Source: a bacterium (GTDB lineage: Bacteria > Bacillota > Clostridia > Oscillospirales > Acutalibacteraceae). Taken from it: a stretch of 36,793 bases of DNA. Shown piece by piece: positions 2,785-36,793 of this stretch; position 1 is the stretch's first letter, and each line of letters opens with the position of its first letter. The notes under the pieces were generated by a model. That model did no database searches. It was given only the letters and a program-made list of their open reading frames with translations, and was not told the origin of the DNA. A program made the position numbers and the translations under genes. The stretch spans positions 1-36,793 of the forward strand of contig JAHKXX010000101.1 in the NCBI GenBank assembly GCA_020627425.1, read 5' to 3'.

Positions 2785-2963
2785 GGACACACCAAGCAGA
2801 ATAGAGAAATGTACCTGCCTTAACTTCAATGCAGCACAAGCGGCACCCTGTGTGCCGCGACGCGGACAAAGATGGACAATAAACCCAGCCTGTACGCGTG
2901 CCAATTTAGTAGGCGGCAACACCAACTACAGTGCGCGAATTGCCACCGGCGGCTCGCCGGTGC
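2785..2963 (+). repeat. intergenic structured repeat R1 (short unit: linker+H1+core+H2), P-ward orientation on +
   Basis: Linker GGACACACCAAGCAGAATAGAGAAATGTACC. H1 GCGGCAC-cctgt-GTGCCGC (2840-2858). Core GCGGACAAAGATGGACAATAAACCCAGCCTGTACGCGTGCCAA ... ACAGTGCGCGAATTG. H2 CACCGGCG-gct-CGCCGGTG (2944-2962). TTGACG follows at 2964. Confidence 0.85.
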
Positions 2964-2993
2964 TTGACGGGGGTAGGCACGCTGCTTTATAAT
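2964..2993 (+). promoter_or_regulatory. sigma-A-type promoter abutting R1, drives the thioesterase-recD2-comF operon
   Basis: TTGACG (2964-2969), 18-nt G-rich spacer GGGGTAGGCACGCTGCTT, TATAAT (2988-2993); 45 nt upstream of the ATG at 3039. Confidence 0.7.
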
Positions 2994-5675: not shown

Positions 5676-6361
5676 CTGAATCTATGAACAGGCTTACAGA
5701 AACCGTATTATCATTTATTATGCCAAGCCGCTGTCCCTTTTGCGGAAAAAGGATAGCCTACGACGAGAGCGAGTGCAGCAATTGCCGCTCGTTTTTTCCG
5801 AAGGACATAAAAAGAAAGGCGCTCCCGACAGGCGAAGAATGCTTTTATCCGTTCTACTACGAGAGCAGGTACAAGGACGCTATGCTTGCTCTGAAGTTCA
5901 AGGGTATGCGATACTATGCCGTCAGCTTTGCAAAGGCTATGACAGGATGTGCAAAAAGAGCCTATGGTGAATATCATATAGATATGATAACCTATGTGCC
6001 TATGTCGGGAAAAAAGAAGCTGCTGCGCGGATACAACCAGTCAAAGCTTCTTGCCGACATTATCGCCCGTGAGCTTTCGGTACCCTGTTGCAGTACACTA
6101 TACAAAAACCCGAAAACTCCCGAACAGCACAAGCTATCAAAGGAAGAGCGGGAGCAAAACGTCCGCGGCGCTTTCTCTCTGAAATACAGCGGTTCTCTTG
6201 ACGGCAAAGTCGTTTTACTTATTGACGACATTATCACCACCGGAAACACCCTATCCGAATGCACTCGTTTACTCCGCTGCGCCGGCGCCCACCCCCTTCC
6301 CCTCTGCGCCACGGGCAGCGCCGGCGGAGTGCCTCCGCAGTCGATTCGCGCCGGCGAGTGA
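5672..6361 (+). CDS. comFC: ComF family protein (phosphoribosyltransferase-like, competence ComFC type)
   Basis: ATGA start/stop overlap with recD2. N-terminal Cys4 finger CPFCG...CSNCR and PRTase motif VLLIDDIITTGNTL. The last ~15-25 codons run into repeat R2 (see findings). Confidence 0.85.
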   Translation: MTESMNRLTETVLSFIMPSRCPFCGKRIAYDESECSNCRSFFPKDIKRKALPTGEECFYPFYYESRYKDAMLALKFKGMRYYAVSFAKAMTGCAKRAYGEYHIDMITYVPMSGKKKLLRGYNQSKLLADIIARELSVPCCSTLYKNPKTPEQHKLSKEEREQNVRGAFSLKYSGSLDGKVVLLIDDIITTGNTLSECTRLLRCAGAHPLPLCATGSAGGVPPQSIRAGE

Positions 6362-6500
6362 GTGTTACCGCATACCTTGTTGGCACGCGGTCGGGTTGGT
6401 CTTATTATACCTCTCAGTCCGCGCCGTGCCGTACAGGACGGCACTTGACGCTGCTATAAAGTGACGGCGAGTATATTTGTCTATTCTGTTTATTGTCTCC
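6315..6500 (-). repeat. intergenic structured repeat R2 (short unit, tail-less arm of dimer R2/R3), P-ward on -
   Basis: + strand reads GCGGAG-tgc-CTCCGC (6324-6338), AGTCGATTCGCGCC, TTGGCACGCGG, CTTATTATACCTCTCAGTCCGCG, H1 GTGCCGT-acagg-ACGGCAC (6426-6444), then linker ...GTCTATTCTGTTTATTGTCTCC ending at 6500. Overlaps the comF 3' end. Confidence 0.85.
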
Positions 6501-6836
6501 GACTTTTAAAATTTACTGAAGACTGAAAACTTAAAACTGAATATTTAAAAATGATAGTCAGAAACTCACATTATACTCGCTGTACTGTTTTTCGGAGACA
6601 ATGAGCAGAGTAGAAAAGTATACTCGCCTCCACAATAAACCAGCGCTAAGCGGCGCGTAAGCGCCGTGACACGGACAAAAAGGTATAATAAACCCGGCTC
6701 GTACGCGTGCCAAAAAAGTCGGCGATAAAAACAACTACAGTGCGCGTGTTGACCGCGCAGGCACTGCGCCGCGTGCCAAGAAGGTAAGCGGTAACATAAA
6801 CCACAGTGCGCGAGTCGACAGCCCGGGCACCGGGCA
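6501..6836 (+). repeat. intergenic structured repeat R3 (full unit with AT-rich tail; internal module duplication), P-ward on +
   Basis: Tail GACTTTTAAAATTTACTGAAGAC...CTCACATTATACTCGCTGTACTGTTTTTC, linker GGAGACAATGAGCAGAGTAGAAAAGTATACTCGCC. H1 CGGCGC-gtaa-GCGCCG (6651-6666). Core ...AATAAACCCGGCTCGTACGCGTGCCAA...ACAGTGCGCG (6705-6746), repeated at 6771-6812. H2 hairpins GCGCAG-gca-CTGCGC (6755-6769) and GCCCGG-gca-CCGGGC (6821-6835). Confidence 0.9.
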
Positions 6837-6843
6837 TTTTTTT
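6821..6843 (+). terminator. intrinsic-terminator-like hairpin forming the last H2 of R3 (likely end of the recD2-comF transcript and/or of a repeat transcript)
   Basis: GCCCGG-gca-CCGGGC followed by A + T7 (6837-6843). Confidence 0.5.
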
Positions 6844-6852
6844 GGAATAATG

Positions 6853-6881
6853 TTGAAAAATCAGACATAATATTGTAGAAT
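6853..6881 (+). promoter_or_regulatory. sigma-A-type promoter for the GNAT gene (not G-rich, outside the repeat)
   Basis: TTGAAA (6853-6858), 17-nt AT-rich spacer, TAGAAT (6876-6881). Confidence 0.6.
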
Positions 6882-11410: not shown

Positions 11411-11439
11411 ATTTTACACCTCCCCCCTCCCCCTGTCAA
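11411..11439 (-). promoter_or_regulatory. sigma-A-type promoter abutting R4, drives citrate synthase
   Basis: Reverse strand: TTGACA (11434-11439), 17-nt spacer GGGGGAGGGGGGAGGTG, TAAAAT (11411-11416). Confidence 0.7.
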
Positions 11440-11712
11440 GCAGCGTGCCCGGCGCGTGCTCGCGCTGAGCAATTCGCGCACTGTAGTTGGTTGTGTCCTC
11501 CACTTTGTTGGCACGCGTACGAGCCGGGTTTATTGTCCCTCTCCGTCCGCGTCACGGCGCTCAGGGCGCCGCTCGTGCTGGTTTGGAGTGGCGGCAAGTA
11601 TATTTTCTACTCTACTTATTGTCTCCAAAAAACAATACAGCGAGTGTGATGTGAGTCTCTCACACTCATTATTCTTTTTTCTTTATTCTCTATTCTTTAT
11701 TCTTCTATTCTG
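11440..11712 (-). repeat. intergenic structured repeat R4 (full solo unit), P-ward on -
   Basis: + strand: GCGCG-tgct-CGCGC, TGAGCAATTCGCGCACTGT, TTGGCACGCGTACGAGCCGGGTTTATTGTCCCTCTCCGTCCGC, H1 CGGCGC-tcagg-GCGCCG (11555-11571), linker ...TTATTGTCTCC (to 11626), tail A6-CAATACAGCGAGTGTGATGTGAGTCTCTCAC plus TATTCT-rich run up to the yitJ stop at 11713. Confidence 0.9.
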
Positions 11713-15744: not shown

Positions 15745-16515
15745 TTATACAATTTCAAGGCGCTTGACCGCCAAAGTCTTACCGGATTGGTTATCTATGG
15801 TAAATTTTATGCAGTTCATTTTACATGTGCCATCGGCAAGCTCAAATCTGACCGGAAGCTTTTGGGTAAATTTTTTTACTGCAAGCTCAGGCTTAACGCC
15901 GAGGACAGATTCCACAGGTCCGGTCATACCGACATCGGTAATATACCCGGTGCCGTCGGAAAAGATCCTCTCGTCAGCAGTCTGAACGTGAGTATGGGTA
16001 CCGAACACAGCAGACACTCTGCCGTTGAGATAATATGCCATAGCGAGTTTTTCCGCAGTAGCCTCGGCATGGAAATCAACGACAACAATTCGGGTATCAA
16101 TTTCCTTTAGCAGTCTGTCTACAGTAGAGAACGGGTCATCAAGGCTTTCGAGAAACATACAGCCGAGCAGATTTATCACCGCAATTTTTATTCTGCCCAT
16201 ATCATATATAACAAAGCCCTTACCCGGAGTAGTACCATCGGGGTAGTTGGCAGGTCTTAAAAGGCACTCCTCGCTATCGAACAACGGATAGCACTCTTTT
16301 CTTCTGAATGTATGGTTACCGTTTGTAATAACGTTCACGCCGCTTGTAAAAAGGTGCTGTGCCGATTTCGGAGTTATACCGTTTCCGTCTGCGGAGTTTT
16401 CTCCGTTTGCCACAACAAAATCTATCTCCTCCTCCTTCTTTAGTCTCGGGAGGCGTTCTCTGAGAAAGTTACAGCCCACAAGTCCGCACACATCGCCTAT
16501 CGCCAACACGTTCAA
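15745..16515 (-). CDS. ymdB: YmdB-like metallophosphoesterase (2',3'-cyclic-nucleotide 2'-phosphodiesterase family, TIGR00282)
   Basis: 256 aa, TTG start. GDVCG, NGENSADGNGIT, DFHAEATAEK and GTHTHVQT metallophosphatase motifs. Confidence 0.85.
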   Translation of the reverse strand: MNVLAIGDVCGLVGCNFLRERLPRLKKEEEIDFVVANGENSADGNGITPKSAQHLFTSGVNVITNGNHTFRRKECYPLFDSEECLLRPANYPDGTTPGKGFVIYDMGRIKIAVINLLGCMFLESLDDPFSTVDRLLKEIDTRIVVVDFHAEATAEKLAMAYYLNGRVSAVFGTHTHVQTADERIFSDGTGYITDVGMTGPVESVLGVKPELAVKKFTQKLPVRFELADGTCKMNCIKFTIDNQSGKTLAVKRLEIV

Positions 16516-16589: not shown

Positions 16590-16775
16590 CCCGGTGCCCG
16601 GGCGGCGCGTGCTCGCGCTGAGCAATTCGCGCTCTCGAATTGGTGTTGCCGCCGACTTTATTGGCACGCGGTCAAGCCTGGTTTATTATACCTCTCCGTC
16701 CGCGTCACGGCGCTTACGCGCCGCTCGTGCTGCATCGTTATGCAGGCAAATGTGTTTGTCTATTCTATTTGGTGT
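16590..16775 (-). repeat. intergenic structured repeat R5 (short unit), P-ward on -
   Basis: + strand: CCCGG-tgc-CCGGG (16590-16602), GCGCG-tgct-CGCGC, TGAGCAATTCGCGC, TTGGCACGCGG, GGTTTATTATACCTCTCCGTCCGCG, H1 CGGCGC-ttac-GCGCCG (16708-16723), GCTCGTGCTG, degenerate linker ...TTTGTCTATTCTATTTGGTGTAAC. Confidence 0.9.
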
Positions 16776-16869
16776 AACTGATTATTGTTTATATAATATA
16801 CAGTCAGTATACTATTTTATAACACTACTAATAGTATATTTATAACCGAAAGTAATATCTTGTAGACAA

Positions 16870-16915: not shown

Positions 16916-16929
16916 TTGTTGGATCATTC

Positions 16930-17095
16930 AGCAGAAAAGCCAAATGAACTTGTCATTACTCCAAACCAGCACGAGCGGCACCCTGAGTGCCGCGACGCGG
17001 ACTGAGAGGTACAATAAACCCAACTCGACCGCGTGCCAACAAAGCGGGCGGTAACACACACCCGAGTGCGCGAATTGCTCAGCGCGAGCACGCGC
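16930..17095 (+). repeat. intergenic structured repeat R6 (short unit), P-ward on +, ends exactly at the yabE-like stop codon
   Basis: ...CTCCAAACCAGCACGA, H1 GCGGCAC-cctga-GTGCCGC (16975-16993), GACGCGGACTGAGAGGTACAATAAACCCAACTCGACCGCGTGCCAACAAAG...GAGTGCGCGAATTGCTCA, H2 GCGCG-agca-CGCGC ending at 17095. TTA (reverse-strand stop) at 17096-17098. Confidence 0.9.
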
Positions 17096-21272: not shown

Positions 21273-21530
21273 GCGGCGGAGTGCCTCCGCGGTCAATTCA
21301 CGCACTCTGGTTGGTGTTACCCCTACCTTATCAGCACGCGTACGAGTTTGGTTTATTGTACCTCTACATCCGCACCACAGCGCATAGAGCGCTGCTTGTG
21401 CTGGTTGGGAGTGAAGATTAAAATGCTTTCTACTCTATTCAATTTCCCCAAAAAACAGTACGGTGAGTATGATGTGAGTTTCTCACAATTGTTAATTTTT
21501 AAGTTTTAAGGTTTCCGTCTTCAGTAAACA
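21273..21530 (-). repeat. intergenic structured repeat R7 (full solo unit), P-ward on -
   Basis: + strand: GCGGAG-tgc-CTCCGC, GGTCAATTCACGCACTCT, ATCAGCACGCGTACGAGTTTGGTTTATTGTACCTCTACATCCGC, H1 CAGCGC-ataga-GCGCTG (21378-21394), linker ...CTACTCTATTCAATTTCCCC, tail A6-CAGTACGGTGAGTATGATGTGAGTTTCTCAC...GTCTTCAGTAAA. Fills the whole gap between the PLC-like stop (21543) and the tatD promoter. Confidence 0.9.
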
Positions 21531-21542
21531 TTTCTTCCGGGA

Positions 21543-22466
21543 TCATTTTACGCTATCCTTTTTTGCGCTGTCATATCCGGAGAAGGAGAGGGCGCAGTCG
21601 TTATGAGTCAGTGGAGTTCCGGAGAGAAGCTTGCCGATAAGGATAAATGAAAGTACGGCGGCACGGTCTACAAGATCGAAAAAGGAATCGTTGTAGTATT
21701 TATCCTCGATAGCGGAGTACCATATTCCACGCCTGAGGTTTGCGTAGTCCTTAGAAAGATCCAGATGATAGCTGCGCAGGATCGGAGATAATAACGGAGG
21801 TAAGCCTAATATGCGCTCGCCTTTCGTTATGAGGGTATGCTTTATGCTATAGGGGTCATTAAGACCCTTCAGAGACTTGTACCAGTCGGTCTGCACCTGC
21901 ATAAGTTTTTTGTCAGAAACAAGACAGCCGGCACTGTATTTCAGAAAATCTTTATATATACCGGTTATAGCATCGTTTGTCGTCTTGTCCAAGGGGGTCG
22001 CCGAATACAGAGGAAAGCTGTTTACGCATCTGTTCTGCTCTGCCTTCAGAAAGATAGTGTCAAGCGCGGACTCTATCTCGTGGTGAAAGGACGACTCGTT
22101 CCTTGACGGGTCGCGTTCTGCCATTTTAGAACTGAGATACAATATATACGGGTGACAAACACTGTCAAGTGCATAGTGCGTTATAAATCCGAGAGTATAG
22201 CTCATAGCAGTGTCGTTACGGGTCTTGCGTGAATAAGAAAAGAATCTGTTTATTATATACTCGGCGTTTGTTCGGTGCATAACTCTGCCGACGGTACGCA
22301 GCGAGTCGCCGTGCTGCCACGGCATAGCCCTGTGAAGAAAAAACAGATCGGGACCTGACGCACCCCACATAAAAGCCGTGTGATCAATATTAAGCTCCGG
22401 TACAGACTGCTTTACCGAGGAGTATATTCTTTCCGACAGAAGATAATGTGATATTACCGCAGGCAT
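21543..22466 (-). CDS. zinc-dependent phospholipase C-like family protein
   Basis: 307 aa. N-terminal MPAVISHYLL, several His clusters (HRAMPWQHGD, ITHYALDSVCHPY) as in PF00882-like proteins of Clostridia; assignment from memory. Confidence 0.5.
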   Translation of the reverse strand: MPAVISHYLLSERIYSSVKQSVPELNIDHTAFMWGASGPDLFFLHRAMPWQHGDSLRTVGRVMHRTNAEYIINRFFSYSRKTRNDTAMSYTLGFITHYALDSVCHPYILYLSSKMAERDPSRNESSFHHEIESALDTIFLKAEQNRCVNSFPLYSATPLDKTTNDAITGIYKDFLKYSAGCLVSDKKLMQVQTDWYKSLKGLNDPYSIKHTLITKGERILGLPPLLSPILRSYHLDLSKDYANLRRGIWYSAIEDKYYNDSFFDLVDRAAVLSFILIGKLLSGTPLTHNDCALSFSGYDSAKKDSVK

Positions 22467-24940: not shown

Positions 24941-25142
24941 CCCGGTGCCCGGGCGGCGTGCCTCCGGCGCGTGCTCGCGCTGAGCAATTCGCGCACTCTG
25001 ATTGATGTTACCACCTACCTATCGGCACGCGTACGAGTGGGGTTTATTGTCCCTCTCCGTCCGCGCCGTGCCGCACAGGGCGGCACTTGACGCTGCTTTA
25101 GAGTGGAGGCGAGTGTGTTTGTCTATTTTATTTATCGTCTCC
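24941..25142 (-). repeat. intergenic structured repeat R8 (short unit, tail-less arm of dimer R8/R9), P-ward on -
   Basis: + strand: CCCGG-tgc-CCGGG (24941-24953), GCGCG-tgct-CGCGC, TGAGCAATTCGCGCACTCT, ATCGGCACGCGTACGAGTGGGGTTTATTGTCCCTCTCCGTCCGCG, H1 GTGCCGC-acagg-GCGGCAC (25068-25086), linker ...TTTGTCTATTTTATTTATCGTCTCC ending at 25142. Confidence 0.9.
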
Positions 25143-25450
25143 GTTTTTAAAAAATACTGAAGACTTAAGACTGAAAACTGAAAAATGAATAATGATTGTG
25201 TGAACTCACATCATACTTGCCGTATTGCCTTTTTGGAGACAATAAGTAAAATAGAGAAATATACCAGCCTTCACTATTAAGCAGCACGAGCGCCGCCCTG
25301 AGCGGCGTGACGCGGAAAAAGAGGTAGAATAAACCAAGCTTGAGACGTTGCTCTGTAGTAGGCGGTAACAATAATTTGCCACGCTGCGGCGTGCCGTGCA
25401 CGCCCTTGCCGCCGTGCGGCAAGAGAGAGTTGACAGCACAGGCACTGTGT
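25143..25450 (+). repeat. intergenic structured repeat R9 (full unit, B subfamily), P-ward on +
   Basis: Tail GTTTTTAAAAAATACTGAAGAC...CTCACATCATACTTGCCGTATTGCCTTTTT, linker GGAGACAATAAGTAAAATAGAGAAATATACC. H1 CGCCGC-cctga-GCGGCG (25291-25307). Diverged core; extra hairpins GGCGTGC-cgt-GCACGCC (25388-25404) and CTTGCCGC-cgt-GCGGCAAG (25405-25423); TTGACA; H2 CACAG-gca-CTGTG (25437-25449). Confidence 0.85.
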
Positions 25451-25451
25451 G

Positions 25452-25480
25452 TTGTTTTTTTTGAAAATGTGTGATATTAT
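25452..25480 (+). promoter_or_regulatory. extended -10 promoter for the response regulator/kinase/htrA operon
   Basis: TTGTTT (25452-25457), 17-nt spacer, TGaTATTAT (TG at 25472-25473, TATTAT at 25475-25480). The TTGACA inside R9 (25430-25435) has no -10 partner. Confidence 0.5.
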
Positions 25481-27774: not shown

Positions 27775-29256
27775 ATGCCTGACAACAGATTTACAGACGA
27801 CTCAAACAATCCGATACCGCAGAGCAGAGACAATATCTACAGCGGCTCGTACAACATCGACCCTTACGGTACAGCAAACAACGGTTCAAACGGATACAAC
27901 CCTTACAATAACAGAGGCTATAGCAGAATGGATCGCGGCGAGCTTTCCCGTCAGGTTGACGAGCGATACAACAGCATAAACGGCAACCAATACTATGCGG
28001 ACTACAATAATTACGGGTACAATTACAGTGTAAGTCCCCTGCCGCCCGAGCCTCCGAAAAAGAAGCACACCGGGCTGAAGGCTTTTGTGATCTCGTTTTT
28101 GTGCGTACTGCTTGCCGTTGTAATAGGTCTTTCGGTTTTACTTATATACAACATAGGAACAACCGACACAAAACCCAAAAAGTCAAAGGATGAGTCCTAC
28201 GACTACAATTCCGACACAAGCTACAGCACAGAGACCTCGTTCACAAGCGCACCCGAAGCAAGTGCAAATCTTAACGGTCCACAGGTAAGCATATCGGAGT
28301 CAAACGGCGATGATGAAGTATCCGATGAAGTGAACGGAGCATATCTGAAGGTATCAAAAAGTATAGTATGCATAACCTCCTATGAAGCCGGAACGGATTT
28401 TACCGTGACCGGGAACGGCGAAGGCTCCGGAATAGTAATAACCTCAGACGGCTATATAGCCACCAACAGCCATGTAGTCAACGACTCGACCACGACCGGT
28501 GTTATGATAACGCTGAACGACGGTTCGCAGTATCTGGGCACGATAATCGGCATAGACAAAAAAACAGACCTTGCGGTAATAAAGATAGACGCAAAGGATC
28601 TGTCTCCGGCAGAGTTTTCCGACTCCGACAAGCTATATGTCGGACAGCCTGCCTATGCTATCGGAAACCCCGGCGGCTCGGCTTTTTCCAATTCTCTTAC
28701 CACCGGCAGTATATCGGCTCTGAACAGGATATTATCCACAAACGGCTATGTAAAGTACATACAGACAGACGCCGCCATAAACCCCGGCAACTCCGGCGGC
28801 GCGCTCATTGACAAATACGGCAGCGTAGTAGGTATGAACACCGCAAAGCTGGTGGCTACGGACTACGAGAGTATGGGCTTTGCAATACCGAGCAACACTG
28901 TTGTATCCATAGTAAACAAGCTGATAAAATACGGCTATGTAAACGACAGGGGTACTCTCGGTATAGAAGGCGCTACCTCTACTCTGTACAATGCAAAAAT
29001 GAATGGTGTTCCCCAGGGTATGATACTGACAAAAATCGAAAGCTACAGCCCTCTCGCGAAAACCAACGTCAGAGAGCAGGACATCATCACTATGATCAAC
29101 GGAACAACCATAACCAATGTTAACGAATTTACCGACATCCTGAAGGACTACAAGCCCGGTGACAGTGTTACCCTTACGCTCTTCCGTCCCTCCTCCCGCA
29201 GCATCTCTGAAACTTTCAGCTACAACGTCACCGTAAAACTGATCCCCGACCGCTAG
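27775..29256 (+). CDS. HtrA/DegP-family S1C serine protease with PDZ domain, membrane-anchored
   Basis: AGGAGG RBS. N/Y-rich cytoplasmic head, one TM helix, catalytic TNSHVV ... D ... GNSGGAL, C-terminal PDZ-like region. Confidence 0.85.
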   Translation: MPDNRFTDDSNNPIPQSRDNIYSGSYNIDPYGTANNGSNGYNPYNNRGYSRMDRGELSRQVDERYNSINGNQYYADYNNYGYNYSVSPLPPEPPKKKHTGLKAFVISFLCVLLAVVIGLSVLLIYNIGTTDTKPKKSKDESYDYNSDTSYSTETSFTSAPEASANLNGPQVSISESNGDDEVSDEVNGAYLKVSKSIVCITSYEAGTDFTVTGNGEGSGIVITSDGYIATNSHVVNDSTTTGVMITLNDGSQYLGTIIGIDKKTDLAVIKIDAKDLSPAEFSDSDKLYVGQPAYAIGNPGGSAFSNSLTTGSISALNRILSTNGYVKYIQTDAAINPGNSGGALIDKYGSVVGMNTAKLVATDYESMGFAIPSNTVVSIVNKLIKYGYVNDRGTLGIEGATSTLYNAKMNGVPQGMILTKIESYSPLAKTNVREQDIITMINGTTITNVNEFTDILKDYKPGDSVTLTLFRPSSRSISETFSYNVTVKLIPDR

Positions 29257-29430
29257 GCGCTGTGCCTGCGCTGTCAATTCGCGCAATGTAGCTTTTGTTA
29301 CCACCTACTTTTTTGGCACGCGGTCAAGCTTGGTCTATTGTCCCTCTCCGTCCGCGTCACGGCGCTTACGCGCCGCTCGTGCTGGTTTGGAGTGGAGGAC
29401 GGTATATTTGTCTGTTCTGTTTTGTAGACC
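29257..29430 (-). repeat. intergenic structured repeat R10 (short unit, tail-less arm of dimer R10/R11), P-ward on -, begins directly after the htrA stop
   Basis: TAG at 29254-29256, then + strand GCGCTG-tgc-CTGCGC (one mismatch), TGTCAATTCGCGCAATGT, TTGGCACGCGGTCAAGCTTGGTCTATTGTCCCTCTCCGTCCGCG, H1 CGGCGC-ttac-GCGCCG (29360-29375), GCTCGTGCTGGTTTGGAGTGG, linker ...TTTGTCTGTTCTGTTTTGTAGACC. Confidence 0.9.
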
Positions 29431-29742
29431 GACTTTAATAATTTACTGAAGACTGAAGACTTAAGACTGAAAAATGAATAATGATAGTGAAAATCTCACC
29501 TCAGACTTGCTGTACTGTTTTTTTGGAGACAATGAGTAGAGCAGACAAACACACTTGCCTCCTCTCCAAACCAGCGCTAAGCGGCACTTTGTGTGCCGTG
29601 ACGCGGACGGTATCGTACAATAAACCCAACTTGAGACGGTGCTCTGAAGTCGGCGGTAACAAGTACCAGCCACGCTCCGGCGTGCCGTGCACGCCCTTGT
29701 CGCCGTGCGGCAAGAGAGAGTCGACAGCGGCGGCACGCCGCC
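29431..29742 (+). repeat. intergenic structured repeat R11 (full unit, B subfamily), P-ward on +
   Basis: Tail GACTTTAATAATTTACTGAAGAC...CTCACCTCAGACTTGCTGTACTGTTTTTTT, linker GGAGACAATGAGTAGAGCAGACAAAC. H1 CGGCAC-tttgt-GTGCCG (29582-29598). Core GCGGACGGTATCGTACAATAAACCCAACTTGAGACGGTGCTC. Extra hairpins 29679-29695 and 29696-29714. TCGACA; H2 GCGGCG-gca-CGCCGC (29727-29741). Confidence 0.9.
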
Positions 29743-29771
29743 TTGACAGGGGGATGGGAGAGAGGTATAAT
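29743..29771 (+). promoter_or_regulatory. sigma-A-type promoter abutting R11, drives the YkuD-like gene
   Basis: TTGACA (29743-29748), 17-nt spacer GGGGGATGGGAGAGAGG, TATAAT (29766-29771). Confidence 0.75.
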
Positions 29772-29808
29772 AGGGGCAAGATAGAATAATATAGGGAGGA
29801 TAGAGGAA

Positions 29809-30714
29809 ATGAAGAAACCGGCGTTTGTAATAGTTGAGACAATACTTTCGCTGTGCCTTGTTGCTTCCGTGGGAGCGGCAGGAGTGCTGGCATATGATAT
29901 AAAGACAAATGAGCTTGGACTTGATAAGCTGAATCCCTTTGCCGTGTCAGAAAGCTCTGATAAAACAAAGGAGGAAAGCTCTAAGGAAACAACCAAAAAA
30001 GAAAGTAAACCCGAACAGAAGGAGTCCTCTGTTTCAGAGGAAAGTAAGGTAGAGACCATAAAGCTCAGAGAGGAACCGAAGGGTCTTAAGAATCAACCGG
30101 CAGAGCTGGAGGATATGCTTGATGACTATGGCTATAGTATTAAAAACAGTATTACGGGCGATCACTTTATAGCTGTTGATGTAAGCAGATCGAATGCAAC
30201 TGTGTATTGCTATGAGAAAAATCAGAACGGCGTCTGGTGGAATGTAGTCGGTGATAAAAAGCCCATCACCACAGATGGCTTTGTCGGCGAAAACGGTACA
30301 GCCTTTGAAATAAGCGAAGGCTCAAAGACTACTCCGGGCGGTATTTATTACCTCGGAGACGGTTTCTATACCGGAGAAAAGCCCGACACCACATACTCTA
30401 TGTTCAAGATCACCGAGGATACATATTGGGTGACGGATCCGGGCTCGAAGTTCTATAACCAAAAGGTCGAGGGTACCGAAAACAAAGACTGGTCGAGTGC
30501 CGAGCATATGATAACAAATAAAGACTCCTATAAATACGGCGTCGTTGTCAATTATAACGTCTATGATACCAAGCCCGATGCCGGCTCCGCAATATTTATG
30601 CACTGCGGCAACACTCCTACCGCAGGATGTATAGTCGTTCCCGAAAATGTTATGAAAACCATTCTCGAATGGCTCGACGGGGACAGCACCGCTTCTATAT
30701 TTATAACAGTCTGA
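29809..30714 (+). CDS. secreted YkuD/L,D-transpeptidase-fold family protein
   Basis: Signal/anchor helix and K/E/S-rich linker. C-terminal FMHCGNTPTAGCIVVPENVM resembles the H...GC catalytic motif of L,D-transpeptidase-like domains. Confidence 0.55.
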   Translation: MKKPAFVIVETILSLCLVASVGAAGVLAYDIKTNELGLDKLNPFAVSESSDKTKEESSKETTKKESKPEQKESSVSEESKVETIKLREEPKGLKNQPAELEDMLDDYGYSIKNSITGDHFIAVDVSRSNATVYCYEKNQNGVWWNVVGDKKPITTDGFVGENGTAFEISEGSKTTPGGIYYLGDGFYTGEKPDTTYSMFKITEDTYWVTDPGSKFYNQKVEGTENKDWSSAEHMITNKDSYKYGVVVNYNVYDTKPDAGSAIFMHCGNTPTAGCIVVPENVMKTILEWLDGDSTASIFITV

Positions 30715-30758: not shown

Positions 30759-31541
30759 TTACATAGCCGCTCTTATTTTTGTAAGGGCAGCTTTTTCAAG
30801 CCTTGATACCTGTGCCTGACTGATGCCTATCTCACTTGCTACCTCTACCTGTGTTTTGCCCTTAAAAAAGCGCATAGACAGTATCCTTTTTTCCCTTGGC
30901 AGCAAGCCTTTTACGGCTTCCTTCAGGGCGATACCCCTCAGCCAGTTTGTGTCGTCGTTTGTATCTCCTAACTGATCCATAACATAAATAGTATCGTTAC
31001 CGTCGGTGAATACAGGCTCATAAAGCGATACAGGCTCTACTATCGCCTCTAATGCCTCTACTACGTTTTCGCGGGGCTCCTCTATCATTTTTGAGATCTC
31101 GTCAATAGTAGGTTCCCGGTTGTTCTCGTTTATGAACCTTTCCTTTGCCTGCATAGCCTTGTAGGCTGTGTCGCGCAAAGAGCGGCTTATCCTGATTGCC
31201 GTGTAGTCCCTGAGATACCTTCGCACCTCTCCTATTATCATCGGCACACCGTAGGTAGAAAAACGGACGTCCTTGGAGCAGTCGAAATTGTCTATTGCCT
31301 TTATAAGTCCGATACAGCCGACCTGAAACAGGTCGTCGGGATTTTCTCCGCGTCCCGAAAAGCGCTGTATAACGCTCAGCACAAGTCTCAGATTCCCCTG
31401 TATCATCTCGTTTCTTGCAGTCTCTTTTTCGGCAGGGGTGCCGTTTTTTATTACCCCTAAAAGCTCTCGCTTTCTTTTTTCGGACAGTACCGGAAGCTTT
31501 GAGGTATTGACTCCGCAAATATAAACCTTACTGTAAAGCAT
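30759..31541 (-). CDS. sigG: RNA polymerase sporulation sigma factor SigG
   Basis: 260 aa, colinear with Bacillus SigG: VYICGVNTSKLPVL, GNLRLVLSVIQRF, DLFQVGCIGLIKAIDNFD, FSTYGVPMIIGEVRRYLRD, GISQAQVSRLEK. Confidence 0.85.
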   Translation of the reverse strand: MLYSKVYICGVNTSKLPVLSEKRKRELLGVIKNGTPAEKETARNEMIQGNLRLVLSVIQRFSGRGENPDDLFQVGCIGLIKAIDNFDCSKDVRFSTYGVPMIIGEVRRYLRDYTAIRISRSLRDTAYKAMQAKERFINENNREPTIDEISKMIEEPRENVVEALEAIVEPVSLYEPVFTDGNDTIYVMDQLGDTNDDTNWLRGIALKEAVKGLLPREKRILSMRFFKGKTQVEVASEIGISQAQVSRLEKAALTKIRAAM

Positions 31542-36567: not shown

Positions 36568-36745
36568 GCGGAGTGCCTCCGCGGTCGATTCGCGCACTCG
36601 AATTGGTAGTATCCCTACCTTGTGGCACGCGTACGAGCGGGGTTTATTGTCCCTCTCCGTCCGCGCCGTGCCGCACAGGGCGGCACTTGTCGCTGCTTTG
36701 ATGTGAGAATAAGTGTATTTGTCTTTTCCGCTTGGTGTATCACAC
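36568..36745 (-). repeat. intergenic structured repeat R12 (short unit as far as visible), P-ward on -
   Basis: + strand: GCGGAG-tgc-CTCCGC (36568-36582), GGTCGATTCGCGCACTCG, GTGGCACGCGTACGAGCGGGGTTTATTGTCCCTCTCCGTCCGCG, H1 GTGCCGC-acagg-GCGGCAC (36668-36686), degenerate linker ...GTATTTGTCTTTTCCGCTTGGTGTATCAC. Confidence 0.9.
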
Positions 36746-36793
36746 TAAATCGCGTTACTTGCACCTATTCCAAAACACCCAGAATTATTTTAC

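Follow-up and report, generated by a model that had tools for sequence, protein, structure and literature searches.

The 36,793-nt window analyzed here covers positions 1-36,793 of contig JAHKXX010000101.1 (assembly GCA_020627425.1; Acutalibacteraceae), read on the forward strand, in which a structured repeat (copies R1 to R12, about 200-250 nt each) can be found 12 times, in eight intergenic regions. At seven of these copies, the terminal GC hairpin lies against the -35 box of an outward-facing promoter or only a few bases from it. Our reading, to which we give about an even chance of being correct, is that each of these promoters belongs to the gene downstream, that they are abutted by a new intergenic repeat, which is structured and recombines, and that the composition of their spacers is tied to the repeat ends.

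Promoters at the Ends of the Repeat

Repeat copies were located by nhmmer and alignment, flanking genes were identified by Pfam and hairpin ends by DNA folding. The repeat is read forward when it runs toward its terminal GC hairpins (H2), small structures with a GCA loop that number one to three per copy. Promoters were scored as matches out of 12 to the -35 and -10 hexamers TTGACA and TATAAT, with block shuffles of the window as the null. All seven outward promoters that the initial annotation had listed at repeat ends (R1, R4, R5, R7, R8, R11, and R12) are present where it had placed them, with spacers of 17-18 nt. Six of them match the hexamers at 11-12 of 12 positions, and TTGACA itself is the -35 box in four of the seven; the R8 site, likewise claimed as a sigma-A promoter, is there but reaches only 9/12, its -35 TTGTTT matching at only three of six positions. 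Sites with at least 11/12 matches number eight in the window, against 0.72 expected (maximum 3) in the shuffles, and six of the eight follow a repeat end. The seven promoters lie 30-75 nt upstream of the start codons of Pfam-supported genes, and Pfam identifies these genes as the recD2 operon (R1), citrate synthase (R4), ymdB (R5), tatD (R7), pcrA (R8), a YkuD-type L,D-transpeptidase gene (R11), and purL (R12). Judging from sequence, each site is in all probability the resident sigma-A promoter of the gene downstream.

The distance from the last predicted hairpin to the -35 box is 1 nt at R1, 0 nt at R5, R8, and R12, 0-1 nt at R11, and 0-3 nt at R7. The gap of 0-3 nt claimed for all seven thus stands for these six copies but not for R4, where 6-12 nt are occupied by a degenerate hairpin remnant. 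At pcrA (R8), the weak -35 TTGTTT and the subsequent T-run double as the U-tract of a terminator-like hairpin. In R11 only, and not as a general feature, a GTCGA located 5' of the terminal hairpin can pair with the TTGAC of the -35 box, adding 5 bp (29713-29748).

Further promoters of this kind can be found on other contigs of the species. The hairpin ends 2 nt from the -35 box of TTGAAA-TTGGGGAGGGGGTGTGA-TAGAAT on L091 and 0 nt from that of TTGACA-AGGGGAGGGGGAACGTGG-TAATAT on L094 (+), both with a G-run spacer, while the promoters of L094 (-) and L095 lie 5 and 8 nt from the hairpin and have spacers that are C-free yet A/T-rich. At least eleven promoters, seven in the window and at least four on other contigs, have a repeat end within a few bases of the -35 box. 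From the window together with the further repeat ends on L091-L095, flushness is therefore general. On L093, the repeat ends in a hairpin and T-run about 100 nt before an rRNA-operon promoter (L093 1-600, 1100-1435). The hairpin and T-run stand between the repeat and this promoter, TTGACA-AAAGGAGAATGAAGTGA-TATTAT, the spacer of which is C-free and purine-rich.

Two classes of repeat end can be distinguished, namely a hairpin followed by a T-run, which scores as terminator-like (R3, R8, R9, and L093), and a hairpin followed by a G-run. Hairpins are also flush with the stop codons of yabE, htrA, leuS, and spoIID, and four repeat ends at stop codons are devoid of a G-run. Repeats can overlap the 3' ends of genes, providing the last codons and the stop codon (window 6290-6361 and 21543-21577; L083 8250-8290). 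In ComF, residue 207 is the last one covered by the TIGR00201 match, and R2 and the G-rich remnant that follows it encode a tail of 22 aa. For the phospholipase C-like protein, the window encodes 307 aa and other strains encode 309 aa, its stop codon in the latter being located within a reversed repeat.

Persistence of the Promoters Among Strains and Genera

Contigs L083-L088, from other strains of the same species (genes 98.6-99% identical; TatD about 91% in L087), differ from the window almost only in the repeats. Upstream of tatD, the window has a full forward unit (R7). In L083-L086, a partial copy of 150 nt is found there instead, which is reversed and has a flipped H2 loop, and L087 and L088 have this reversed partial copy plus 100 nt of extra DNA. 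Nowhere was a clean empty site found. The tatD promoter of all these strains has the hexamers TTGAAA and TATAAT with a G-rich spacer of 17 nt between them, homology being regained 0-3 nt ahead of the -35 box; the hexamers are invariant in the six strain contigs and four spacer positions vary. In L087, pcrA is preceded by a chimeric repeat and a different neighboring locus, yet TTGTGT-TTTGGGGGGAGAGTGTGG-TATAAT is kept. In L083, a different variant stands in for the part of R10 between the core hairpin (H1) and H2, the stop-codon boundary being the same, and an additional tandem copy is present at R6. Because of this partial replacement, the extra copy, and the chimera in L087, the copies can be said to exchange sequence or recombine. 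Gene order also differs among strains exactly at repeats (L087 1-500; L084 6830-7069; L083 1-65), the pcrA promoter of L087 being joined to the R5/R6 center and L084 diverging after the R6 center. These differences represent genuine rearrangements through recombination at the repeats or, alternatively, chimeric assemblies.

The relatives used for comparison comprise 80 loci (1.2 Mb). In repeat-free genera, ymdB is preceded by TTGACA-17-TAAAAT/TAGAAT in six to seven of eight loci, at a similar distance and with a related end of the 5' untranslated region (UTR), and pcrA has a conserved TTGATA-17-TAAAAT. The spacers of both promoters are G-poor and mostly A/T-rich there, so the hexamers predate the repeat and the G-richness does not. 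According to the initial annotation, finding the same G-rich promoters in relatives without the repeat would mean that the promoter is the older of the two; this turned out to be so for the hexamers, but the G-rich spacers do not occur in those relatives. Its proposal of a homologous promoter module traveling with the repeat is not supported, as the spacers are no more alike than shuffled ones (see below) and the promoters stay when the repeat is swapped or inverted.

As for the means by which the repeat spreads, the promoter is not part of the repeated unit, as it would be in a miniature inverted-repeat transposable element of the Correia type, except at the inter-copy junction described below. 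No duplicated flank was seen at any boundary inspected for a target-site duplication. In head-to-head pairs, the two copies do act as inverted arms, each about 200 nt long, but units often occur singly, and the unit is not one bounded by terminal inverted repeats. A fixed insertion target TTGAC was rejected, given the ends at stop codons without TTGAC.

G-Rich Spacers

The spacers had been described as abnormally G-rich, which is upheld by a G fraction of 0.44-0.82 at the seven sites vs. a mean of 0.25 at 154 other promoter-like sites (Mann-Whitney p=5e-6). Five of the seven (R4, R5, R7, R8, and R11) are devoid of C, but those of R1 and R12 contain C because each holds a hairpin, or the remnant of one, of the kind that terminates the repeat. 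At R4, the spacer is formed by a perfect tandem of a 7-nt unit (GGGGAGG x2.1, 11419-11433). Over the whole window, six 17-nt segments have at least 11 G and at most one C. Every one of them is located outward of an H2 repeat end, no farther than 80 nt from it, and has its G on the outward strand; one of these locations is inside comF, where the G-rich remnant reported after R2 proved real. The count of such segments is not in excess (six vs. 5.7 in mononucleotide shuffles), and they are exceptional only in location. A G-run can be found at about 8 of 13 promoter-adjacent repeat ends. A search for G-rich spacers in 1.25 Mb of loci (the window, two same-species contigs, and relatives) gave 14 matches, eight of them in this species, and one additional repeat-adjacent case, in L007. 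By sequence comparison, G-rich spacers appear confined to this lineage.

A C-free G-run in the half of the spacer next to the -35 box is thus a matter of composition, and one that goes with repeat ends. Ordinary promoter spacers have a T-tract beside the -35 box and are G-rich only near the -10 box (PMC12641261); G near the -10 box at the present sites agrees with the Gram-positive TRTG motif. The spacer composition of these promoters is thus unlike that known from normal bacterial promoters. GC-rich spacers make promoters dependent on negative supercoiling (PMC8695583). Among the three repeat-independent promoters offered as controls with ordinary spacers, that of the yabE-like gene is valid, but those of the GNAT and response-regulator genes follow R3 and R9.

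Several candidate explanations of the spacers were tried and rejected. The mean pairwise identity of the six G-run spacers is 9.2/17 vs. 8.8 in composition-matched shuffles (p=0.135), which does not make them a homologous module. Derivation of the promoter from the reverse-orientation tail of the repeat (H1, TTGACG, a G-rich stretch, and TATATT) gave no significant overall similarity. Long-range pairing, in which the G-rich flank would serve as 3' strand to the repeat's pyrimidine-rich segment, was not favored by cognate over non-cognate pairs (p=0.14) or by shuffles (combined p=0.53), and a striking duplex at R8 (-27 kcal/mol) is not kept in L087. The pcrA spacer can be aligned with an ancestral A/T-rich spacer with T-to-G changes (10/17 identical), but an unrelated spacer scores similarly. 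Phase variation through tract length is contradicted by the tatD spacer, which has 17 nt in all six strain contigs, its G6, G5, and G7 runs arising among strains by substitution without change of length. Sigma-B-like GGGTAT -10 boxes and G-quadruplex motifs, inspected by eye, are inconsistent across sites.

Promoter Pieces Derived From the Repeat

At the junction between successive copies stand TTGAC, a half hairpin, (G)TTAGTG, TAAAAT, and some 50 bases that are conserved; the junction reads into the next forward copy. It recurs at the window end and on L083, L090, and L092, and is the only promoter-like piece that is itself repeated. L090 continues the right end of the window with 49/49 nt identical, and because L090 (3335-4111) overlaps window positions 36745-36793, the region between leuS and purL must hold four or more repeat copies. 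The junction reading into R12 may, from its sequence, give purL a long structured leader. In R1, R12, and this junction, the -35 box and spacer are recognizably derived from the repeat; since the TTGAC and hairpin pieces found there are of the repeat type, a hybrid origin of some -35 boxes is possible.

Architecture and Distribution of the Repeat

Each unit runs from a 7-nt tandem head array through a conserved core carrying hairpin H1 to one or two tail modules, and ends in one to three H2 hairpins of 13-19 nt, each preceded by TTGAC or TCGAC. Four intergenic regions have head-to-head pairs (R2/R3, R5/R6, R8/R9, and R10/R11) joined by an A/T-rich center with 7-nt tandem arrays, and the other four have single units (R1, R4, R7, and R12). 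The modules are variable, with tail duplication at a period of 66 nt, H2 counts from one to three, and heptad arrays of differing length. H1 is a 7-bp hairpin, 97.7% paired, with compensatory changes at 5 of 7 pairs; covariation as high as observed was reached in 0 of 500 shuffles. Because G.T wobbles exceed A.C mismatches on the forward strand (35 vs. 7), the structured strand is co-directional with the outward promoter. This asymmetry is compatible with an RNA or single-stranded DNA form and is no proof of it.

Several copies have a 26-nt insert, GTACCCCAAGGGCACTTCCTTCGGGC, nested on the loop side of H1 (L083 12778-12982; L084 6626-6829; L090 3335-3755 and 3878-4056; L093 1240-1435), which looks like a further mobile or duplicating sub-module. 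The 7-nt head arrays can be found in the window at 6515-6554, 11669-11711, 21487-21514, 25156-25195, and 29445-29471, as well as at L091 (around 1700-1740) and L007 (9708-9752), and the heptad is not constant among copies (ACTGAAG, AGAATAA, GCAATGG, and GTGTGGA). Within the repeat, a conserved promoter-like TTGGCA-17-TATTGT/TATTAT is present in reverse orientation, e.g., at 11508-11536 (+), 29313-29341 (+), 16661-16689 (+), and 2904-2876 (-); it could yield a predicted reverse-strand transcript of about 120 nt, ending near a small hairpin and a T-rich stretch.

Searches for the repeat elsewhere returned next to nothing. Rfam 15 covariance models gave no match at gathering score in the whole window and a single chance-level match (E=1.3) in 29200-29830, and blastn of the repeat vs. 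plasmids and phages gave none. The core pattern had no match in 185,579 species genomes and one chance match in metagenome contigs, nhmmer detected no repeat near pcrA in the 80 loci of relatives, and a covariance model run on relatives gave only a weak match (E=0.37), in the L037 repeat. Further copies were recovered on contigs L090-L095 by a protein-collection search with translated spurious open reading frames (ORFs) of the repeat. The present element is a new, lineage-restricted, modular, structured intergenic repeat of the BOX/BIME/Correia kind. Other genera of the family have intergenic repeats of their own, of about 170 nt, with terminal GC hairpins directly 5' of -35 boxes (L007 9783-9956, 13339-13512, and 13633-13774; L037 9619-9900 and 13400-13577; L015 8799-9807; L014 14811-18188). 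The G-run spacer of L007 stands beside one of these, and a short motif, CGGACGGAGA-GGA, is common to the L007 repeat, the L037 repeat, and the present core.

Among the 185,579 species genomes, the closest PcrA (71% identity) comes from rumen metagenome-assembled genomes (MAGs) labeled uncultured Ruminococcus or Acutalibacteraceae, and in a protein search the phospholipase C-like protein forms a single cluster at 98%, the next best being at most 49% identical. The host would accordingly be an uncultured, Acutalibacteraceae-like organism of the rumen. Logan/ENA short-read contigs of the organism (L082, L089, and others) begin or stop inside the repeat, and protein look-ups mostly gave such contigs. 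Gene callers make spurious ORFs from the repeat, such as a 128-aa "gene" at L083 12619-13005 and proteins P0073-P0078.

Origin of the Arrangement and Alternative Explanations

The repeat would have overwritten whatever intergenic DNA is dispensable, so that the terminal hairpin would come to end against the first indispensable base. Where a promoter follows, this base belongs to the -35 box; where a convergent gene follows, it belongs to the stop codon. The promoter, including its spacer, would be inherited with the gene and not with the repeat. The hairpin would take the place of the A/T-rich UP element, leaving the promoters to depend on hexamers close to consensus and on the TRTG "-16" motif of Gram-positive bacteria. 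Regarding the spacer, any proposal is more tentative. A normal T-tract right after a strong GC hairpin might make an intrinsic terminator, as at R3, R8, R9, and L093, and a C-free G-run, which neither terminates nor lengthens the palindrome, might avoid both. GC-rich spacers could also render these promoters dependent on negative supercoiling.

Several observations weigh against this account. TTGAC is present in every tail module, and the spacers of R1 and R12 are hairpins of the repeat type. G-rich, C-free tracts are also present after two repeat ends where a functional promoter is lacking, i.e., as the R2 remnant and on L092 near 3100, which hints that G-rich DNA can come with, or be generated at, repeat ends. 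Repeat-adjacent promoters without G-richness exist (L094 (-), L095, R3, and R9). Terminator avoidance does not explain why G, instead of A, replaces T. No empty site was found, so that insertion beside a pre-existing promoter is deduced only from distant relatives (PcrA identity at most 71%).

The idea that the -35 box, G-rich spacer, and -10 box form one module at the repeat end, copied along with it and supplying many core operons, seems very unlikely to us. It would account for the tight association of G-rich spacers with repeat ends, the likeness of the R2 remnant in comF to the R4 spacer, the G-rich flank without good hexamers after the L092 repeat end, the 13/17 spacer positions common to R4 and R11 and likewise to R8 and L091, and the repetition of TTGAC, half hairpin, and TAAAAT at three loci at least; reuse of promoters is, moreover, documented in prokaryotes (PMC3575422). 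Yet the overall likeness of the spacers is at shuffle level (p=0.135), the tatD and pcrA promoters persist despite exchange or inversion of the repeat, repeat-free genera already have the hexamers of ymdB and pcrA, and the module is absent at tandem repeat junctions and stop-codon ends. A hybrid promoter, in which the repeat end gives the outward TTGAC(A) -35 box, and in some copies a hairpin as spacer, and the gene gives the -10 box, is unlikely, though less so. The -35 boxes are unusually near consensus (TTGACA in 4/7) and are separated from the hairpin by 0-6 nt at each of the seven sites of the window and by no more than 8 nt at four others; each terminal hairpin inside the repeat is preceded by TTGAC or TCGAC, and an H2-type hairpin serves as spacer in R12, R1, and the inter-copy junction. 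The same TTGACA precedes ymdB at equal spacing in six to seven of eight repeat-free relatives, however, homology between strains with different repeat versions resumes upstream of the -35 box and not after it, and the stop-codon ends have no TTGAC beyond the hairpin. Abutted promoters may also be actively remodeled by the repeat end, which would supply or reshape the -35 box and drive the neighboring spacer to a C-free G-run; this we regard as improbable in a high degree. If true, dozens of housekeeping promoters would be built alike, with hairpin, -35 box, and G-run, and be controlled in a common way, whether through coupling to supercoiling or a cruciform, through a protein that binds the hairpin, or through recombination from the G-tract, and the layout beside a different repeat in L007 would be convergent evidence of function.

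Flushness could also reflect tight packing of an RNA gene, i.e., a forward-transcribed unit (small RNA, 3' UTR, or leader) with the hairpin as terminator or 3' stabilizer, a reading that we consider rather doubtful. The compensatory changes in H1, the excess of G.T over A.C on the forward strand, the terminator scores of hairpin and T-run ends at R3, R8, R9, and L093, and the conserved promoter-like junction reading into R12 all point this way. Against them stand the lack of a matching Rfam family, of a U-tract at most terminal hairpins, and of a conserved promoter before most copies; transcription of R2, R6, and R10 in the forward sense would enter genes in antisense, and a transcription-linked mutation bias could produce the wobble asymmetry. 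There is finally a slim chance that the GC palindrome and the G-run spacer constitute a regulatory or recombination device, which might act by supercoiling coupling via a cruciform, as a protein-binding site, or through gene conversion starting at the G-tract. GCA loops are conserved while stems covary, suggesting recognition of shape, the hairpin, -35, and G-run layout arose in a second genus (L007) next to a repeat that is not the present one, the repeats act as hot spots of recombination, and GC-rich spacers bring supercoiling dependence (PMC8695583). This proposal is purely inferential, several repeat-adjacent promoters have no G-run, the genes concerned have no common function, and canonical G-quadruplex motifs are not consistently present.

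Features of the Window

The coordinates of the repeat copies and associated promoters are collected in Table 1. A sigma factor is encoded, according to Pfam, at 30759-31541.

Table 1. Repeat copies and promoter sites of the window, with spacer length and G and C counts where available.
Feature	Position	Strand	Remarks
R1 repeat copy	2786-2963	+	Terminal hairpin CACCGGCGGCTCGCCGGTG at 2944-2962
R1 promoter, thioesterase/recD2/comF operon	2964-2993	+	TTGACG-GGGGTAGGCACGCTGCTT-TATAAT; 18 nt, G8 C4; hairpin remnant GGCACGC in spacer
R2 repeat copy	6322-6502	-	Hairpin end within comF 3' end
G-rich remnant after R2	6286-6307	-	No usable hexamers; + strand encodes part of non-homologous ComF tail
R3 repeat copy	6592-6842	+	Duplicated tail module; ends in hairpin GCCCGGGCACCGGGC and T-run, terminator-like
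GNAT promoter	6853-6881		Follows R3; A/T-rich spacer
R4 repeat copy	11440-11712	-	Includes 7-nt tandem head array 11669-11711
R4 promoter, citrate synthase	11439-11411	-	TTGACA-GGGGGAGGGGGGAGGTG-TAAAAT; 17 nt, G14 C0
R5 repeat copy	16590-16790	-	Two terminal hairpins
R5 promoter, ymdB (15745-16515)	16589-16561	-	TTGACA-GAGTGGGGGGAATGTAT-TAAAAT; 17 nt, G9 C0
R6 repeat copy	16920-17095	+	Hairpin flush with stop codon of convergent yabE-like gene; no G-run
Promoter of yabE-like gene, repeat-independent control	18446-18418	-	Consensus; ordinary spacer, G4 C3 A3 T7
R7 repeat copy	21273-21542	-	Full forward unit with heptad head array
R7 promoter, tatD	21272-21244	-	TTGAAA-TAGGGGGGATTATGGGG-TATAAT; 17 nt, G10 C0
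R8 repeat copy	24941-25150	-	Three terminal hairpins
R8 promoter, pcrA	24940-24911	-	TTGTTT-TTTGGGTGGAGGGTGTGG-TATAAT; 18 nt, G11 C0
R9 repeat copy	25200-25451	+	Ends in hairpin and T-run
Response-regulator promoter	25452-25480		Follows R9
R10 repeat copy	29257-29432	-	Hairpin flush with htrA stop codon
R11 repeat copy	29495-29742	+	Forward arm of R10/R11 head-to-head pair; variant tail
R11 terminal GC hairpin H2	29729-29742	+	GGCGGCACGCCGCC; ends 0-1 nt before -35
R11 promoter, YkuD-type L,D-transpeptidase gene (29809-30714)	29743-29771	+	TTGACA-GGGGGATGGGAGAGAGG-TATAAT; 17 nt, G12 C0
R12 repeat copy	36568-36760	-	
R12 promoter, purL	36567-36538	-	TTGACA-GGGGCGGCACGCCGGGGG-TATAAT; 18 nt, G12 C5; spacer is H2-type hairpin flanked by G-runs
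Inter-copy junction	36745-36793	-	Promoter-like -10 TAAAAT at window end, reading into R12

Comparison With Known Repeats

Small interspersed repeats are usually regarded as neutral filler or occasional promoter donors. Here, the repeat fills almost every intergenic region of a core-gene stretch and is reshuffled between 99%-identical strains, while the promoters persist. If the G-run is functional, it would represent a new way for repeat DNA to constrain or tune core promoters; if it is a mutational by-product, it would be a marker of a local process at repeat ends. For MAGs of this lineage, the repeats break short-read assemblies, generate spurious ORFs, and alter protein C-termini.

Among known systems, the Correia repeat-enclosed elements (CREE) of Neisseria resemble the present repeat in being small, non-coding, and intergenic, with inverted ends, directly upstream of genes, with possible promoter hexamers at their ends and variation between strains (PMC2649163). 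CREE have 100-155 bp, short terminal inverted repeats, a TA duplication, and promoter hexamers within the element or at its junction, whereas the present repeat has 200-250 nt, is modular, shows no target duplication, and leaves promoters with the gene when it changes. The BOX, RUP, and SPRITE repeats of Streptococcus pneumoniae, also a member of the Firmicutes, are likewise modular, with a variable number of modules and a predicted structure, intergenic, near promoters, and strain-variable (PMC3049150). The present repeat has no sequence similarity to them and differs in its covarying core hairpin, its arrays of terminal GCA-loop hairpins, its 7-nt head arrays, and its systematic abutment, at 0-6 nt, to -35 boxes with G-run spacers.

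The terminal hairpins are reminiscent of the REP/BIME and REPIN sequences of Proteobacteria, which are arrays of short GC-rich extragenic palindromes, often directly after stop codons, and are recombination substrates as is the present repeat (PMC3184786, PMC8049555). In contrast to these, the hairpins are only one module of a larger unit and have no GTAG at their feet. Hybrid promoters of insertion sequences (IS) similarly have an outward-end TTGAC motif 17-18 nt from a -10 box (PMC9330008, PMC9208149), but no transposase or IS is present here, and the -35 box predates the element at ymdB, the only comparable site. Putative mobile promoters, in which near-identical promoter-like DNA is found at several loci (PMC3575422), have their counterpart in the inter-copy junction, while the seven gene promoters, unlike them, are similar only in hexamers and composition.

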